Origin: an uncultured Spirochaetota bacterium
GTDB lineage: Bacteria; Spirochaetota; B62-G9; CAZFGQ01
Direction: 5' to 3'
DNA length: 64,000 nucleotides
NCBI GenBank assembly: GCA_964518675.1
Contig: CAZFGQ010000004.1
Coordinates: 3,631-67,630, forward strand
A model generated the notes under the pieces. It saw only the letters and a program-made list of their open reading frames with translations. It was not told where the DNA came from and did no database searches. Positions 1 through 7,382 of this stretch are shown piece after piece. Position numbers and translations under genes: made by a program. The stretch's first letter is position 1; the number at the start of each line of letters is the position of its first letter.

Positions 1-1599
1 TGTATTATTTTTTTACTGGTCTTTTTGATAAACAATATTTTTTCAAGTGTTTTCCCGGATTCAATAGCATCCTTTGCAAGTAAGTATCCTTCAGATATAC
101 TGTTGCAGGTTCCATATATATAAAGACCTGCACCTGCATTAATGGCAATTGCCTTCTTGAGCCCTTCGTACTTATTTCCTTTTAGCAGATCGATTGCCAT
201 TTTTGCATTTTCCTTGGCACAGCTGCCTTTTATAACAGATAGATCATATTTTTCACCTATTATCTCATCTGGATGTATAATGTAGCTCTTCATTTTCTGA
301 TCGCTGTCCACCTCAACGACATACGTGTCTGCCGAAATGGATATTTCATCAAGTCCGTCCTCGCTATGAACCACCATTACCCGTTTTTTTCCAAGTTTGA
401 TAGCGGCCTCAGCAACAACTTCTATAATGCTTTTATCATAAACACCTATTACCTGATATTCAGCGCCTGCCGGATTTACTAGAGGCCCGAGCAGGTTCAT
501 GACAGTTTTAAATCCAAGTTGTTTTCTTACCTTTGCTGCATATTTCATCGATTGGTGGTAAATTGGTGCAAAAAGAAATGTAAATCCACACTCTTTTAAA
601 AGTTTCTCAGCTTCCTCTGGCATTGTGTCTGTGGGGATCCCGAGCTCCCGGTAAAAATCAGCACTGCCAGAACGTGAGCTAATACCCCTGTTTCCGTGTT
701 TTGCTACCGGAATACCACAGCTGCTGCATACGAGGGCTGCCATTGAGGATATATTGAAACTGTGAGATCCATCACCACCTGTACCACATGTATCAAGCAC
801 AGGCGATTCTGTTTTAATGGATCTCATTTTATTCAGTAATTCTTCTGCAAGTCCGGCCAGCTCATCCGGAGTTGGTTTTTTTGTACTCATTGCAGTGAGA
901 AATGCTGAGATATGAATTTCAGAAAGCTCTCCTTCTGTTAGCTCCTCCATGAAACCCCTGCATTCCTCCCGTTTCAGGTTATTCTTTTCAATTATTTTTT
1001 TAATCAGCTCGGAAACAACGAGGGGTTTCCTTTTATACCTCAGAAAGTTTTTAAGTAATTTTTTGCCATACTGGGATGCTACGGATTCTGGATGAAACTG
1101 GATACCCTCCACTGGATATTCCCTGTGTCTGATTCCCATTATTTCGCCAGAGCTGGAAGTAGCTGAAACTTCAAGCTCTTCGGGCAGAGAGTTTCTATCA
1201 ATTATAAGTGAATGGTAACGTGTAAAGATTGCCGGGTTTGGTATATTTCTGAAGAGTCCCATTCCGTCATGATAGATTTCATCTGTTTTGCCGTGGAGTA
1301 TCTTTGAAGATGGAAGGATTAAGCCACCAAAGGCATAACCTATTGCCTGATGTCCCAGGCAAACACCGAGAATGGGAACTTTCGGGGCAAATCTTTTTAT
1401 CACATCAACGGTAATGCCTGCATCCTCCGGTCTTCCCGGCCCTGGTGATATGATTATTCCCTCAGGATTTAATTTCTCAAGTTGCTCGATGGAGACTTTG
1501 TTGTTTCTAAAAACTCTGATTTCATGATCTGAGATCTGCCTGAAATACTGATAGAGGTTATACGTAAAAGAATCAAAATTATCAATCAAAACAAACATT
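1..1599 (-). CDS. trpGD: Bifunctional anthranilate synthase component II / anthranilate phosphoribosyltransferase (TrpG-TrpD fusion); C-terminus lies beyond the window edge
   Basis: Reverse-strand translation from the ATG at 1597-1599 (GGAGG RBS 8 nt upstream) reads MFVLIDNFDSFTYNLYQYF...GVCLGHQAIGYAFGG (class-I glutamine amidotransferase). It continues without a stop (...HPESVASQYGKKLLKNFLRYKRKPLVVSELIKK...) into a TrpD domain with LDTCGTGGDGSHSFNIS, and runs off position 1. This ORF is absent from the supplied ORF track. Confidence 0.8.
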
Positions 1600-1609
1600 T
1601 TTTACCTCC

Positions 1610-3025
1610 TTAAATCTCAATACCCAGTGAAAGGCATAGAGCTCTCAATTTTTCACATATTTCCTCATATTCTCTTTCGGGCTTTGAGTCGTAGACCACT
1701 CCAGCTCCGGCCTGAAGATAAAGGATATCATCGATCTTCAATGCACTTCTTATTGTGATGCATGTATCGAGTGTTCCTCCGGGCTCAAAATATCCCACAA
1801 TCCCCGCATAAAATCCTCTTTTTACTTCCTCTAGTTTATTGATTATTTCGATTGCTCTGATTTTAGGTGCTCCTGAAACTGTGCCTGCAGGGAAACTCAT
1901 TCGAAGGGCATCCAGACCTGTCTTCCCACTGTCAAGCTCTCCATCAACCTGGGAGACAATATGCATTACATGAGAGTAGTTTTCTATTCCCATGTATTCC
2001 GTAACCTCGACGCTTCCAGGTTTGCATACCCTGCCCAGATCGTTCCTCGCTAGATCAATCAGCATCAGGTGCTCTGCAATCTCTTTTTCATCATTTAAAA
2101 GTTCTTCCTCCAGTTTTTTATCCTCTTCGGGGGTTTTGCCCCTTTTCCTTGTACCTGCAATTGGTCTTATGGTTGCTTTTTTGCCTTTCACCCTGATATG
2201 AACCTCAGGTGAAGACCCAAAAAGCTGAAATCTTTTACAATCAATGTAGAACATATATGGTGAGGGGTTCAAAGATCTGAGTTTCCTGTAGGCCTCAAGA
2301 GCAGGGATTTCTGTTCTGATTTTTATACGATTTGAAAGTACACCCTGAAGCAGGTTCCCCTTGATAATCTCTCTTCTGACCTTTTCGACACCTCTGATAA
2401 ATTTTTCTCTGCCAGAATGGAGATTGAGCGGAATGGATGGATAATCGACCTCAGGTATGTATAGATAGTTAAAATCAAGGTCATGGAGCCTTCTTTCAAG
2501 CTCTTCAATAGCTTTTTCCAGATTGATTGAATGTTCCTTGTAGTTCAGGCCCAGCAATGTAATGGTATCTGTGAAATGGTCGAAGATGAGGAATGTGTGC
2601 CCAAATATAAATAGTGCATCAGGGATTTTTGTCTCATCTGGTTTTTCATCAAGGTTTATCTCATCGAAAAACCTGCAGTATTCGTATCCAATGTATCCTA
2701 TGCCACCCGCAGGGAATGGAAAGCCGGATTCCGGGTTTTTATGCTGGGAGGAGAAATAATCAACAAGTTCGAGAACATCTTTTACCTTTGATCTAAGTCT
2801 GTGGATTCTACCATCCATCTCCAGGTATATATCAGTTCCTGTCTGAAATACCTTAAAAGCTTCTCTTTCCAGTATTATTGAAAACCTGCTCTTACCTCCC
2901 CAGAAAGAGGCGGATTCGAGAAGAGCGGAAGCTTTTAGCTTTTTGCAAAGTGAAAAGGGGGTAAACCTCTCACCATGAATAGTTTTTATTATCAGATTGT
3001 TTGAGATTTTAACTGTTTCATTCAT
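1610..3025 (-). CDS. trpE: Anthranilate synthase component I
   Basis: 471-aa ORF with TrpE-type chorismate-binding core ([10 protein letters not shown]...GYIGYEY...IAGTRKRG...[14 protein letters not shown]). The stop lies 10 nt upstream of the trpG start, so the two are coupled. Confidence 0.92.
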
Positions 3026-3142
3026 ATCTTCCTCCCCAATAACTCATCATTGTTAGAGTTTTTAGATATCTAGCAGAAAAACATCCAAATCTCCTGAAAG
3101 AGATCATTAAACTAACTGTAGCTTTCCGTTATTGAATGTTTG

Positions 3143-3184
3143 AAATAAATAAAAAAGGCCGTAAAACCAAATGGTCTTACGGCC
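3143..3184 (-). terminator. Intrinsic terminator of the trp attenuator (minus-strand transcript)
   Basis: The minus-strand RNA reads GGCCGUAAGACCAUUUGGUUUUACGGCC followed by UUUUUUAUUUAUUU. This is an 8-bp GC-rich stem plus a U-tract, about 118 nt upstream of the trpE ATG. Upstream segments (AAGGCCGUAGGUCCUGGC / GGUCAGGUCCUGCGGCCUU) can pair with each other or with the terminator 5' arm. Confidence 0.7.
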
Positions 3185-3269
3185 TTATAGAGAAAGGCCG
3201 CAGGACCTGACCTAACTTCTGGGTTTAGCCAGGACCTACGGCCTTCAAACTATATGAAGGTGGTTCTGG

Positions 3270-3356
3270 CTAACCCCAGAACCACCACCACCAGCTATAA
3301 TTTTTATGGCTTAATTCTTTTTTCATTACAGATCTCATTATTACAGCTCTTGTCAT
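3270..3356 (-). CDS. trpL: trp operon leader peptide (28 aa, five Trp in the last seven residues)
   Basis: The reverse strand reads atg aca aga gct gta ata atg aga tct gta atg aaa aaa gaa tta agc cat aaa aat tat agc tgg tgg tgg tgg ttc tgg ggt tag, giving MTRAVIMRSVMKKELSHKNYSWWWWFWG*. The Trp-codon stretch GGUGGUUCUGG is complementary to the CCAGAACCACC that immediately follows the stop. The plus-strand ORF 3254-3517 (..TTTT..) is its antisense artefact. Confidence 0.75.
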   Translation of the reverse strand: MTRAVIMRSVMKKELSHKNYSWWWWFWG

Positions 3357-3527
3357 TTTCAATTTTTATCTGTGTTAATTTCCCTGGCACTATATATAAC
3401 TATGGTATTATTATCAAAGATTCAATATATTTCTTTTTACTGACAAAGTGTTCTATTTGTAATTTATATTTAAGTATAAACATCTCGTACAGAAAGTCAA
3501 GCACATTCGATTTTTGAATAGAAGTGA

Positions 3528-4085
3528 TTGTGTTACCGTTTCTCCAAGAAGGGAAAGTTTAGTCGAATGAGAGAGAACCACATCTTTATTAAAGAAACTT
3601 TCAAAATATTTTCTCATATCCATATCTACGTTATCTTTTCTCGATGGTTGGGGCTTGTGGATACTAAAGCGGCTCTTGTTATAGGGTATACAGGATGGCT
3701 TTTGCCAATTTCAGTCTGGATACTGTATGGTTATTTTCAGACAATACCAAAGGACCTTGAGGATGCTGCAAGGATCGATGGATGCACTAGGCTTAAGGCT
3801 CTCTTTCGGGTTGTTATGCCTCTTTCAGCACCAGGCCTTGCGGCAACGGCTATTTATGTTTTTATAAGTTCGACGAACGAGTTTTTATTTGCAATGATAT
3901 TTGCAAGTACTCACCGGTCAAAAACAATTCCTGTTGCTCTTGCCGATATGGTAGGAAAATATCAGATAAGATATGGGGATATGACGGCAGGTGCGGTAAT
4001 TGCAGCAATATTTCCGGTGGTTCTGGCTTTAATATTTCAAAAGTACCTTGTTCGTGGACTTACCGCCGGTAGTGTGAAAGGTTGA
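3528..4085 (+). pseudogene. Truncated MalG/CUT1-type ABC transporter permease (C-terminal half only)
   Basis: Residues about 40-185 match a permease C-terminus, including the EAA loop (EDAARIDGCTRLKALFRVVMPLSAPGLAAT), over roughly 150 aa of the usual 280. The N-terminal 40 aa (MCYRFSKKGKFSRMRENHIF...) look non-native. No upstream partner ORF exists; the trp leader sits there instead. Confidence 0.55.
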
Positions 4086-4128: not shown

Positions 4129-4740
4129 TCAGGCTTTCACAAACTCATTGTATTTTTTTTCCTCACCAATGGTTGTATTTTCTCCATGACCTGTGTATAC
4201 AATGGTCTCATCGGGGAGTGTATAGAGTTTTTCTCTGATGCTTTTTTCCAGTTCTTTAAAGGAGCCCATTGGAAGGTCTGTTCTTCCGACCGATCTGAAA
4301 AACAGTGTGTCTCCCGAGAAGAGGGCCTTCCCAACCTTTAAGGATATACTTCCTTTAGTATGTCCTGGAGTATGTAACACTTCTATCGGGATCCCGCCTA
4401 TCTCAAGCTTATCTCCTTCATTGAGTAAAATATCTGGCATGACAGAAATAAACGGCATTTCTACCATTTCTGAAAGATTTAATTCAGGATTGACCAGTAC
4501 CTGGTATTCATCCCTGTGGCATGCAAGTTTTGTATCGTATCTTGATTTGAGATCGTTGTTCGCACCTATGTGGTCGTAGTGCCCATGGGTATTTATAATG
4601 TAAAGGAGCTTTCTTCTTCCAATTACAGGATATATAAGCTCAGGGTTACCACCTGGATCGATAACGACTGCTTCGGTCTCGTTTCTTATTATGTAGCAAT
4701 TTGCACCCAGAAGACCCACAACCTTTTTAATAATCTCCAT
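4129..4740 (-). CDS. MBL-fold metallo-hydrolase (glyoxalase-II-like)
   Basis: THGHYDH metal-binding motif, a downstream HTPGHT, and a GDTLF segment. Confidence 0.88.
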   Translation of the reverse strand: MEIIKKVVGLLGANCYIIRNETEAVVIDPGGNPELIYPVIGRRKLLYIINTHGHYDHIGANNDLKSRYDTKLACHRDEYQVLVNPELNLSEMVEMPFISVMPDILLNEGDKLEIGGIPIEVLHTPGHTKGSISLKVGKALFSGDTLFFRSVGRTDLPMGSFKELEKSIREKLYTLPDETIVYTGHGENTTIGEEKKYNEFVKA

Positions 4741-4832
4741 CTTTTATCTCACCTTCGGATTTCTAAACCATATCTTTTTAAAGTAACAGTATTTGGTAAA
4801 GAGCCAGCACATGAAAAGATATTTCACAGCAG

Positions 4833-5285
4833 CTAGAACTTCTTCTCGGAAGAATCAAGTATTATTGTCACAGGTCCAAAGTTGTTCAGTTTTACCTCCA
4901 TTATTTCACGGAACTTTCCCTCTTTTACCGGAATGTTGTATCTGGATAGCTTCTCTATCACTGACCTGTAAAGATGTACAGCTTTTTCGGGATCAGCTGC
5001 TCTTGTAAAACTTGGCCTTCTTCCTTTTCGGGTATCTGCGAGGAGGGTAAATTGGCTTACTACCAGTATTTCACCATTTATATCAAGCAGAGATCTATTC
5101 ATCTGCCCCTTATCGTCGGGGAAGATTCTTAGATTTGCAACTTTACCTGCAATATATTTTGCATCCTCCTCTTTATCGTCGGTGGATACACCAACAAGTA
5201 GTAGTATACCCTCTCCGATTGCTGAGATTCTTTTCCCATTTACCAGTATCTCTGCTTCTTTGACCCTCTGTACAAGACCGATCAT
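4833..5285 (-). CDS. dtd: D-aminoacyl-tRNA deacylase
   Basis: 150 aa with the SQFTLLAD...KGRRPSF signature of Dtd. Confidence 0.9.
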   Translation of the reverse strand: MIGLVQRVKEAEILVNGKRISAIGEGILLLVGVSTDDKEEDAKYIAGKVANLRIFPDDKGQMNRSLLDINGEILVVSQFTLLADTRKGRRPSFTRAADPEKAVHLYRSVIEKLSRYNIPVKEGKFREIMEVKLNNFGPVTIILDSSEKKF

Positions 5286-5294
5286 TTTTTACTA

Positions 5295-7382
5295 TTATTT
5301 TTCCTTTTCTGCCTGTTCTCGTCTCCGCATTGTTTCCTTTATCACATCTTCCGCTATTTTCCCACTTATTGGTTCATAGTGTGAGAATTCCATCTCGAAT
5401 GAGCCTGTACCTGATGTTAGTGATTTTAACTCTATTGCATATCTCAGTAATTCAGCCTGGGGAACTTTTGCCCTGATAACCTGTAACCCTCCACCCAGGC
5501 TATCCATACCGAGTACTCTTCCCCTTTTGGAGTTCAGATCACTCATTATGTCACCTGTATATTTCTCGTCAACATAAACAGTAAGGTCCATTATTGGTTC
5601 GAGAAGTGTGGGTTTTGCCTTTTCCATGGCAAGCTTAAAAGCCTGTCTCCCTGCTATTTTAAAAGCCAGTTCGGAGGAATCAACCTCGTGATAGCTACCG
5701 AAGACCAGGGAAACTTTTACATCAACTACAGGATATCCAGCTACTACTCCCTCCTCCATCGCTTCTCTAACTCCCTTTTCTACGCCGGGAATGTACTGTT
5801 TGGGGATTACTCCACCGACAATTTTATCTACAAACTCGAATCCTCCGCCTCTTGGCAGCGGTTCTATTTCCAGAAATACCTGCCCGTACTGTCCATGGCC
5901 ACCGGTCTGCTTTTTGTGCTTGTAATCGGCTTTTGCCGGAACGGTTATTGTTTCTCTATAGGCGATCAGAGGTGTGGATGTTACGTAATCGATACCGTAA
6001 TTTTCCTTTATCTTTGAAAGAATGATATTGAGGTGTAGCTCTCCCATGCCAGAGATGACGGTTTCTTTTGTTTCCTTGTTGTATTCTACTTTAAAAGAGA
6101 TGTCTTCCTCGGCTGCTCTCTGAAGAAGGGAGCTCAGTTTATCCTCTTCTTTCTTGTTCTTTGCCTTTATTGCTACACTGTAAACAGGATATGGGAGAAC
6201 CATCTCTGGGAATACGACAGGTCTGTCTGTGGAGGATAGTGTATCTCCTGTTTCTGCATATGGGAGTTTTGTGAGGGCTATAATATCACCTTCTTCAGCA
6301 TCCCTTTCAAGAGGATTCTGGGTTTTGCCAAAGGGTGTAAATATCTTTGAGAGCTTTTCTTTCTTATCTTTTGTTGTATTCATAACCTCCTGTTCTGCCT
6401 TTACTGTGCCTGAAAAAACCCTCACATATGAAATCTTGCCGGCAAATTGATCTATTACTGTTTTAAAAACCAGGCCTGTAAACGATTCATCTTTGCTGCA
6501 TTTTATCTCAACTTCTTTGCTTTTATCGTTGGCATTAAATGCCTTGATTGTTTCCCTGAAATTAGATGGAGGTGCAATTTCCTTTATTATTCTTGTAGCC
6601 TCTGTTATACCAATGTTCATTGCGCAGCTTCCCACAAGTACAGGTACAACCTCCCTCGATTCTATTCTTTTCCTGAGGCCCTCAACTATCTCTTCCTGTG
6701 TTAACTCTTCTCCTTCGAGGTATTTTTCTGTAAGCTCGTCTGTTGATTCCGCACTGATCTCTATAAGATTATTTCTCAGAGACTCAACCTCCGATTTGAG
6801 ATCGTCTGGTACTGGGGATTTTTTACCGGATTTTGATTTTTCTTCATAGATGTAAGCTTCCATACCAAGTATATCTACGACGCCTTTAAAATTATTTTCA
6901 GCACCTATGGGAAGCATTAATGGAACAACGTTTGTTTTGAGATTTTGTTTTATATTTTCAAGAGTATTGTTAAAGTCTGCATGCTCTTTATCCATCTTAT
7001 TAATAAAAATGATTACTGGCAGGTTGAGCTTTTTGGCTCTGTTCCAGTTTTTGGTGGTTTCGATCTCTATCCCTCTTACGGCATCCACAAGCATGAGAGC
7101 TGAATCGACTCCATAGAGACACGATACTACCTCTCCTGCAAAATCTGCAGAGCCAGGTGTATCGATGATAGTAAAGTTTGTGTCCTCATGTTTGAAGTTG
7201 AATATGGTCGATTTAATGGATATTTTCCTCTTTATTTCTTCCTCATCATAATCACTTAGCGATTTTCCATCATCCACCCGTCCCAGTGTATCAACTATCC
7301 CAAGATCATACAGGAGATGGTCAATGAATGATGTCTTGCCAACTGAAGTATGACCGACAAGAGCTAGGTTGATCTTCTTCAT
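5295..7382 (-). CDS. Elongation factor G paralog (EF-G2-like translational GTPase)
   Basis: 695 aa with full EF-G domain architecture. The G1 motif is divergent (GHTSVGKT instead of AHIDAGKT). The C-terminal GGHGQYG...[15 protein letters not shown] motifs are conserved. The canonical fusA is at 22860-24953. Confidence 0.85.
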   Translation of the reverse strand: MKKINLALVGHTSVGKTSFIDHLLYDLGIVDTLGRVDDGKSLSDYDEEEIKRKISIKSTIFNFKHEDTNFTIIDTPGSADFAGEVVSCLYGVDSALMLVDAVRGIEIETTKNWNRAKKLNLPVIIFINKMDKEHADFNNTLENIKQNLKTNVVPLMLPIGAENNFKGVVDILGMEAYIYEEKSKSGKKSPVPDDLKSEVESLRNNLIEISAESTDELTEKYLEGEELTQEEIVEGLRKRIESREVVPVLVGSCAMNIGITEATRIIKEIAPPSNFRETIKAFNANDKSKEVEIKCSKDESFTGLVFKTVIDQFAGKISYVRVFSGTVKAEQEVMNTTKDKKEKLSKIFTPFGKTQNPLERDAEEGDIIALTKLPYAETGDTLSSTDRPVVFPEMVLPYPVYSVAIKAKNKKEEDKLSSLLQRAAEEDISFKVEYNKETKETVISGMGELHLNIILSKIKENYGIDYVTSTPLIAYRETITVPAKADYKHKKQTGGHGQYGQVFLEIEPLPRGGGFEFVDKIVGGVIPKQYIPGVEKGVREAMEEGVVAGYPVVDVKVSLVFGSYHEVDSSELAFKIAGRQAFKLAMEKAKPTLLEPIMDLTVYVDEKYTGDIMSDLNSKRGRVLGMDSLGGGLQVIRAKVPQAELLRYAIELKSLTSGTGSFEMEFSHYEPISGKIAEDVIKETMRRREQAEKEK

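Follow-up and report, generated by a model that had tools for sequence, protein, structure and literature searches.

How is the trpE-trpGD-... operon of a spirochaete controlled, and to which kind of regulatory RNA does the region ahead of its first gene belong? The question is raised by a 64-kb stretch (the window; 39% G+C) of contig CAZFGQ010000004.1 from an uncultured Spirochaetota bacterium, in which a short leader precedes trpE. A preliminary description of this DNA had read the leader as an attenuator with the 1:2/2:3/3:4 logic of the Escherichia coli tryptophan (Trp) operon. A ribosome-mediated, Trp-codon-sensing attenuator was supported by the anatomy of the leader, by covariation of both of its folds in 18 sequences and by folding with a masked ribosome; the layout, however, was found to be a relay of six segments, not four. 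Judged from sequence and modelled folds, the element is very probably a functional attenuator of the operon. All coordinates are those of the window, in which the leader and the trp genes lie on the minus strand. The parts of the leader are as follows, with ORF for open reading frame.

3270..3356, minus strand: trpL-like leader ORF of 28 codons and UAG, MTRAVIMRSVMKKELSHKNYSWWWWFWG and stop, from ORF translation
3276..3293, minus strand: regulatory codon block UGG UGG UGG UGG UUC UGG (four Trp, Phe, Trp), which holds segment 1 (3286..3276)
3259..3273, minus strand: segment 2, (U)UAGCCAGAACCACC, including the leader stop; pairs with segment 1 (3269..3259) or segment 3 (3273..3262)
3225..3246, minus strand: segment 3, 5′ arm of the central hairpin, AAGGCCGUAGGUCCUGGCUA; alternative partners, segments 2 and 4
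3193..3212, minus strand: segment 4, 3′ arm of the central hairpin, GGUCAGGUCCUGCGGCCUU; alternative partners, segments 3 (anti-antiterminator) and 5 (antiterminator)
3173..3186, minus strand: segment 5, 5′ arm of the terminator, AAGGCCGUAAGACC; alternative partners, segments 4 and 6
3143..3168, minus strand: segment 6, GGUUUUACGGCCUU (3168..3155), with the U-tract UUUUUUAUUUAUUU (3156..3143); intrinsic terminator with segment 5

Translation of 3356..3270 on the trpE strand gave the Trp-rich peptide of 28 residues that had been proposed earlier. Trp accounts for five of the final seven codons, and the ORF ends with UGG UGG UGG UGG UUC UGG GGU UAG; codons 7 and 11 are alternative in-frame ATGs. 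The codon block TGGTGGTGGTGGTTCTGG (3293..3276) has a single occurrence in the window, even with two mismatches allowed, and none of 100 dinucleotide-preserving shuffles reproduced it at the same tolerance. The short ORF lies between the candidate promoter and the first structural gene, and codons for the product of the operon are clustered near its end. The leader is currently unannotated, and gene callers give only spurious small or antisense ORFs at this place. One of these, an antisense ORF of 87 amino acids (3254..3517, plus strand) containing RTTTTS, was discounted as a gene because low-GC relatives do not conserve it, in agreement with its earlier dismissal as an artefact.

The inverted repeats of the leader were recovered by an unguided repeat finder. 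Pairing 1:2 (GGUGGUUCUGG / CCAGAACCACC) spans 11 nucleotides (nt) and is 100% complementary, which bears out the exact match between the Trp-codon block and the sequence after the stop codon. Pairing 2:3 (20 nt, 90% complementary) joins the end of the ORF and the post-stop sequence to the 5′ arm of the central hairpin; its core consists of UAGCCAGAACC (3272..3262; stop codon and segment 2) and GGUCCUGGCUA (3236..3226; segment 3). The central hairpin, 3:4, spans 23 nt (78%), pairing 4:5 spans 14 nt (86%) with arms of the GGUCUUACGGCCUU type, and the terminator, 5:6, spans 15 nt (93%). Recovery of both 3:4 and 4:5 confirmed that two further segments can pair with each other or, in part, with the 5′ arm of the terminator. 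The preliminary description had listed 1:2, 3:4, 4:5 and 5:6, but had overlooked 2:3, the contact that couples the position of the ribosome to the rest of the relay. Because this contact is added, the layout resembles that of the his leader rather than that of E. coli trpL. The six segments thus support two states, 1:2 with 3:4 and 5:6, which is terminating, and 2:3 with 4:5, which permits read-through.

A terminator scan identified a stem of 14 pairs (3186..3155), seven of them G-C, with a 4-nt loop, so that an intrinsic terminator lies between the leader ORF and the structural gene. The U-rich tail after the stem is TTTTATTTAT; the whole U-tract (3156..3143) is a canonical U6AU3AU3, of which the first two U residues pair at the base of the stem. 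From the end of the tract, at 3143, there are 118 nt to the trpE ATG at 3025, as had been estimated. The 226-nt leader was predicted to form three consecutive hairpins with a folding energy of -96 kcal/mol, compared with -53.3 +/- 4.2 kcal/mol for shuffled sequences (z = -10.2).

Relatives of the leader were collected from contigs encoding TrpE homologues and by scanning metagenome contigs for TGGTGGTGGTTYNNNNNNTAGCC, which yielded a family of 18 distinct sequences (39 to 70% G+C), the window included, each directly upstream of a trpE homologue. The pattern scan returned 120 stretches, among them 11 with a leader upstream of trpE; one was the window locus and one duplicated L086, leaving nine new members. 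Twelve of the other matches were inspected as possible further leader families and rejected, all being chance matches within unrelated coding DNA (IYTWWWFFI, QVWWWFCR and TATCGWWWFTV, each followed by a stop, are examples). The relatives encode leader peptides of 14-30 amino acids at the same position, with 3-4 Trp codons compared with 5 in the window. The peptide ends ...W-W-W-F-(W/R)-x-stop in 17 of the 18 sequences and W-W-W-W-T-stop in L212. The Trp run is invariant in the alignment, the N-Y of the peptide motif is missing in high-GC members, and the N-terminal part varies freely in length and sequence throughout the family. None of the three positions of the codon between F-W/R and the stop is constant. 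The stop codon stands at the start of segment 2 in 18/18, and two codons past the Phe codon in 17/18. After the peptide, the RNA continues with UA(G/A)CC(A/G)G(A/G)ACC, a long hairpin, and then a terminator hairpin with a U-tract. The window fits this definition of the family: WWWF(W/R)x-stop or WWWWT-stop, the UA(G/A)CC(A/G)G(A/G)ACC sequence and three hairpins, upstream of trpE.

The alignment (A2: MAFFT, 18 sequences, 186 columns) provided evidence for both folds. RNAalifold, with no structure supplied, recovered the same three hairpins, with compensatory changes in 18/37 pairs. Pairs were also counted for the two pre-specified structures, with a control in which the partner columns were slid by 1-3 positions. 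For the terminating fold (1:2, 3:4, 5:6), 90.1% of cells were paired, compared with 31-53% in the slid controls; 18 pairs had changed on both sides, and 0/500 shuffles reached the observed values. The terminator itself showed compensatory changes in 8/14 pairs across the relatives. For the read-through fold (2:3, 4:5), 89.9% of cells were paired, compared with 26-50% when slid, and eight pairs had changed on both sides. Columns 65, 112, 140 and 176 co-vary across three helices, with 3:4 appearing as G-C, A-U or G-U, 4:5 as C-G, U-A or U-G, and 5:6 as G-C, A-U or G-U. In L210, the stop codon is UAA in place of UAG, and this is matched by a C-to-U change in segment 3 and a G-to-A change in segment 4. 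The four-column co-change and the swapped stop codon imply, at the level of sequence comparison, selection on both folds, and are hard to explain otherwise. Conservation of the Phe codon and of the Trp or Arg codon that follows it is explained by GGUUCUGG, which is common to segments 1 and 3, both of which pair with CCAGAACC.

Folding with and without a ribosome, the check that had been proposed for this locus, gave mutually exclusive terminator and antiterminator folds that were switched by the position of the ribosome. The ribosome was represented by a hard mask extending 13 nt past the first base of the A-site codon, and the decision point was taken as the length at which segment 5 has emerged and the 3′ arm of the terminator is still to be transcribed. 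The helix energies in the window were -22.9 (1:2), -21.4 (2:3), -36.6 (3:4), -22.0 (4:5) and -23.1 kcal/mol (5:6). Without a ribosome, 1:2, 3:4 and 5:6 folded in 18/18 sequences. With the mask on any of Trp codons 1-3 of the window, the minimum-energy fold at the decision point was 2:3 with 4:5, and this antiterminating combination was also the minimum in 14 of the 18 sequences with the mask on the second Trp codon. A mask at the stop codon eliminated 2:3 in all 18 and left 3:4 dominant in 16. In a length scan of the window under the stall, 2:3 formed first, with 72-92 nt exposed, and 2:3 with 4:5 was the minimum at 124-130 nt. The antiterminator fold therefore depends on where the ribosome stands.

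These results suggest the following mechanism. Transcription would start about 25 nt 5′ of the leader ATG. With an ample supply of charged tRNA-Trp, the ribosome would reach UAG, where its footprint would cover segment 2 because UAG is part of that segment; segment 3 would then pair with 4 and segment 5 with 6, and RNA polymerase would terminate at the U-tract, 118 nt before trpE. Termination would also be expected when no ribosome is present, through 1:2, 3:4 and 5:6. When tRNA-Trp is scarce, the ribosome would stall with its A site on one of the first three Trp codons, masking segment 1 and leaving segment 2 free to capture segment 3 as it emerges. Segment 4 would then pair with 5, the terminator would be blocked, and trpE would be transcribed. 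Kinetic trapping of 2:3 would be required, as in classical systems. We infer such trapping, together with translation of the leader and a response to Trp in vivo.

Several observations weigh against this mechanism. No clear Shine-Dalgarno sequence was found 5′ of the leader ATG in the window, and the number of promoter-like sites (4, with 2.9 +/- 1.6 expected) is not above chance in this AT-rich stretch. At the decision point, with the mask on the second Trp codon, another fold was lower in energy than the antiterminator in L082, L085, L136 and L212. With segment 6 exposed, the full-length RNA at equilibrium favors the terminating fold even when the ribosome is stalled. Over the interval of 104-118 nt exposed, 3:4 exceeds in stability the 2:3 helix formed earlier, and it is for this reason that read-through needs 2:3 to be kinetically trapped. 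When the stall is at the fourth or fifth Trp codon, the ribosome reaches into segment 2, and the result resembles the stop-codon state.

Three other explanations were weighed. The first concerns the number of regulated hairpins: in a four-segment reading with tandem terminators, 3:4 would be the regulated terminator under the control of 2:3, in the style of E. coli trpL, and 5:6 a back-up. Such an arrangement is suggested by 6 of the 17 relatives (L082, L085, L098, L151, L176 and L210), in which 6-8 of the 8 nt immediately after the 3:4 stem are U, and a weak terminator-like site was flagged in the window itself at 3208..3195. Only three of the eight bases after the 3:4 stem of the window are U, however (CUCUAUAA, 3192..3185), so 3:4 is a poor terminator there, whereas 5:6 carries the canonical tail; moreover, 4:5 covaries, which is expected only if 5:6 is also regulated. 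As an account of the window this reading is improbable. It may be a refinement for part of the family and not an alternative mechanism. The window has lost the U-tract after 3:4, and this hairpin most likely acts there only as an anti-antiterminator.

The remaining two explanations dispense with the ribosome as the sensor or place the function in the peptide. A translation-independent element (a TRAP- or T-box-type leader, a constitutive terminator or a processing signal), in which the Trp-rich ORF is incidental, might be entertained because the window ATG lacks a strong Shine-Dalgarno sequence, with its translation presumed. A TRAP-type leader would need about 9-11 (G/U)AG triplets spaced 2-3 nt apart, and was rejected since the longest chain in 3420..3025 of the minus strand is 1; a T-box leader was rejected likewise, no T-box match being found in the window, in 2950..3550 at E values up to 10, or in 12 relatives. 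In the same Rfam search at E up to 10, no other family matched the leader as a whole: on 2950..3550, with Rfam 15, only the sub-threshold families IS102, Spd-sr07 and sau-41 appeared, aligning to the terminator hairpin alone. All 18 sequences preserve the frame, the Trp run and a stop where segment 2 begins, while the N-terminal peptide is free to vary, and the variable codon before the stop fits the loop of a hairpin within the ORF. Translation-independent control is thus very improbable. It is also conceivable that the conserved peptide ...(N)YWWWF(W/R) is functional itself, as a nascent arrest peptide or in trans like Sinorhizobium peTrpL. Its C-terminal motif is strongly conserved, and a role in trans is documented for the trp leader peptide of S. 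meliloti (PMC7298713). RNA pairing nevertheless accounts for the conserved F and the next W/R, through GGUUCUGG in segments 1 and 3 and its partner CCAGAACC, and N-Y is lost in high-GC members, leaving this idea with only the slightest probability.

The attenuator reading places the element in a textbook mechanistic class, and it belongs to no catalogued Rfam family by covariance-model test: at the gathering threshold, no family of Rfam 15, including Trp_leader (RF00513), was found in the whole window or in the 12 relatives. E. coli trpL has four segments and two Trp codons. Like the trpL of E. coli and Salmonella (Rfam Trp_leader, RF00513), the spirochaete leader comprises a short ORF upstream of trpE with Trp codons just before its stop; the Trp codons are in segment 1, segment 2 starts at or after the stop, and an intrinsic terminator and mutually exclusive folds follow the logic of stalled and released ribosomes. 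It differs in its Spirochaetota host, in the absence of any match to it in sequence or in structure (by cmscan at E up to 10), in having six segments and three hairpins where trpL has four segments, and in its five Trp codons (3-4 in relatives) where trpL has two. Its antiterminator, 4:5, is also one step removed from the segment sensed by the ribosome.

The enterobacterial his leader alternates between A:B, C:D, E:F and B:C, D:E, and contains seven consecutive His codons. The spirochaete element shares with it the six-segment relay, regulatory codons in the first segment, a central hairpin that switches partners and a terminal terminator, as well as termination in the absence of translation. 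It senses Trp, whereas the his leader senses His, and the two are unrelated in sequence and serve different operons. The Bacteroid-trp leader is an Rfam family and a predicted trp attenuator of Bacteroidetes, a phylum in which leader-peptide systems also occur. Like the present element, it lies outside Proteobacteria and Actinobacteria and is a leader-peptide trp attenuator predicted by computation; no Rfam family at threshold, this one included, was found in the window or in the 12 relatives.

The trpL of Sinorhizobium meliloti (rnTrpL) has consecutive Trp codons upstream of trpE(G) and ribosome-dependent transcription attenuation (PMC6614838). In contrast to the spirochaete relay, this alphaproteobacterial leader has four segments, and its attenuator RNA and peptide have documented functions in trans; homology between the two is undetectable. 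In Corynebacterium glutamicum and Streptomyces venezuelae, leader peptides with Trp runs upstream of trpE have experimentally supported Trp-dependent attenuation (as cited in PMC4833913). These actinobacterial leaders share the Trp runs upstream of trpE, and differ in phylum and in sequence, which is unrelated. Leader-peptide systems were recorded in 2010 for Proteobacteria, Actinobacteria and, as a new finding of that study, Firmicutes (PMC2965389). For spirochaetes, the literature searches turned up no published trp leader.

The taxonomic range of the family was examined through both TrpE and RNA. All named TrpE homologues of the window query came from Spirochaetota metagenome-assembled genomes (Spirochaetia, Spirochaetales, Sediminispirochaetaceae, Alkalispirochaeta), and TrpE from a member of 68% G+C, used as query, found named homologues only in Spirochaetia. 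One TrpE, P0001, is 98% identical, and the next closest reaches about 66%; the contig that encodes the 98%-identical protein (L081) breaks off 88 nt upstream of trpE. L207 and L214-L216 are identical copies of the window locus in other assemblies, showing no micro-variation. A scan of genome contigs with a single TrpE protein found no relative. A profile scan of the same kind of contigs with TrpE alignment A1 captured universal TrpE motifs, with mostly unrelated phyla among the matches listed; only L001-L004 among these were spirochaetal, and none had a leader.

A covariance model, R1, was built from alignment A2 with a rough, shortened calibration. It found one copy in the window at 121.9 bits, a circular result given that the window is in the seed alignment. 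Family members scored at least 40 bits, and L213, outside the seed, scored 40.5 bits. Outside the phylum, R1 gave a single weak match, at 18.9 bits (E about 0.007), ahead of the trpE of an actinobacterium (L017); apart from it, the model matched nothing upstream of trpE in the other fetched phyla, and no leader match was found upstream of trpE in the Treponema-type loci L001-L004. L213 (832-972) is a divergent nineteenth member, with the peptide MSTVTAYRNIVHFTHSWHWRE ending in ...SWHWRE and a stop and containing two non-adjacent Trp codons; it retains UAG, then a GC-rich segment 2, and the terminator.

In the Treponema-type loci, whose TrpE is 47-53% identical, trpE is preceded by neither a leader ORF nor a terminator. 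Their promoter regions contain repeated palindromes, for example GTTACTATAA(A/G)TAG(T/A)AAC and GTTTCTATTGACAG(T/A)AAC, located in L001:1330-1500, L003:1380-1500, L004:1390-1500 and L002:1400-1500, with trpE starting at 1501. By their sequence, these look like operators for a DNA-binding repressor.

Beyond the leader itself, the promoter candidates and the regulated genes are as follows.

3389..3417, minus strand: candidate sigma-70-type promoter P1, TTGATA (3417..3412), 17-nt spacer, TATAGT (3394..3389); 10/12 matches
3473..3500, minus strand: promoter-like site P2, TTGACT, 16-nt spacer, TATACT; 10/12 matches, about 110 nt upstream of the leader ATG
1610..3025, minus strand: trpE, anthranilate synthase component I, 471 amino acids; TIGR00564 match, first regulated gene
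1..1598, minus strand: fused trpG-trpD, next gene of the operon, from translation; runs off the start of the window

The TTGATA-17-TATAGT promoter proposed earlier is present at 3417..3389 and fits the geometry of the family, but by count it is indistinguishable from chance, and P2 has an equal score. Most relatives have cTTGAC and, downstream of it, a TAnnnT hexamer; 80-90 nt separate their -35 hexamer from the first Trp codon. Measured from the -35 hexamer, the leader ATG is 61 nt away for P1, compared with 57-59 nt in L082, L085, L086 and L209, and 72 nt in L083. The -35 hexamer of P2 resembles the family cTTGACt, while its spacing to the leader is unlike that in the relatives. On this sequence comparison, P1 is a plausible leader promoter with family-like geometry. 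The 5′ untranslated region of low-GC members spans about 22-25 nt. In the high-GC members L113, L136, L151 and L171, the leader ATG and the -10-like region lie about 40-50 nt upstream of the Trp codons, and the ATG is only 6-9 nt past the -10-like hexamer. Because of this short distance, the mRNA for the leader peptide in high-GC members is probably leaderless, or nearly so.

The gene downstream of the leader is a genuine trpE, its product scoring 525.9 bits against a TIGR00564 cutoff of 517.7, and a GGAGG Shine-Dalgarno sequence lies just 5′ of it. The syntenic gene of relatives that follows trpE has GATase and Glycos_transf_3 domains, matching the trpG-trpD fusion. The 118-nt spacer between terminator and trpE contains a 29-amino acid ORF (3018..3107, minus strand) that overlaps the trpE start, and a small hairpin (3075..3093, minus strand), GAUCUCUUUCAGGAGAUU; across relatives, this spacer ranges from about 25 to 160 nt, and no conservation was seen in it. 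The gene order EF-G, D-aminoacyl-tRNA deacylase, MBL-fold hydrolase, trp leader, trpE, trpGD is kept in L082 and L083 (upstream genes at 4129..7382 of the window, minus strand). The upstream neighbors differ in the remaining family members; the leader is therefore linked to trpE and not to the genes on its other side.

An ORF on the opposite strand (3528..4085, plus strand; 185 amino acids, TTG start) lies between the trp leader and the MBL-fold hydrolase gene (4129..4740). Its match to MalG/GlcU-type sugar ABC permeases is confined to their C-terminal half, at profile positions about 125-270. The syntenic relatives L082 and L083 have no gene at this place, and the same fragment was called in the identical locus copies L214-L216. 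From its sequence, the ORF is probably a gene fragment.

With the element placed in the attenuator class, the balance of probability tips slightly towards a first-described family of leader-peptide trp attenuators that is widespread in non-Treponema Spirochaetia (39-70% G+C), absent from Rfam 15 and the searchable literature, and independent in origin from the proteobacterial and actinobacterial leaders. Its own features would be the his-type six-segment relay, a switching helix that includes the stop codon, two terminators in tandem in some members and, in high-GC members, leader-peptide mRNAs that appear to be leaderless. To a specialist, the element is unsurprising and poses no new mechanistic question; it is a good comparative example of a two-state RNA, the 18 sequences spanning a 30-point range of G+C with both mutually exclusive folds covarying. 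This data set could seed an Rfam family and improve the annotation of spirochaete metagenome-assembled genomes. Classical ribosome-mediated attenuation would be extended by the element to Spirochaetota, in which related organisms appear to have adopted different solutions for the same operon, an attenuator in one clade and operator-like palindromes in Treponema-type genomes.

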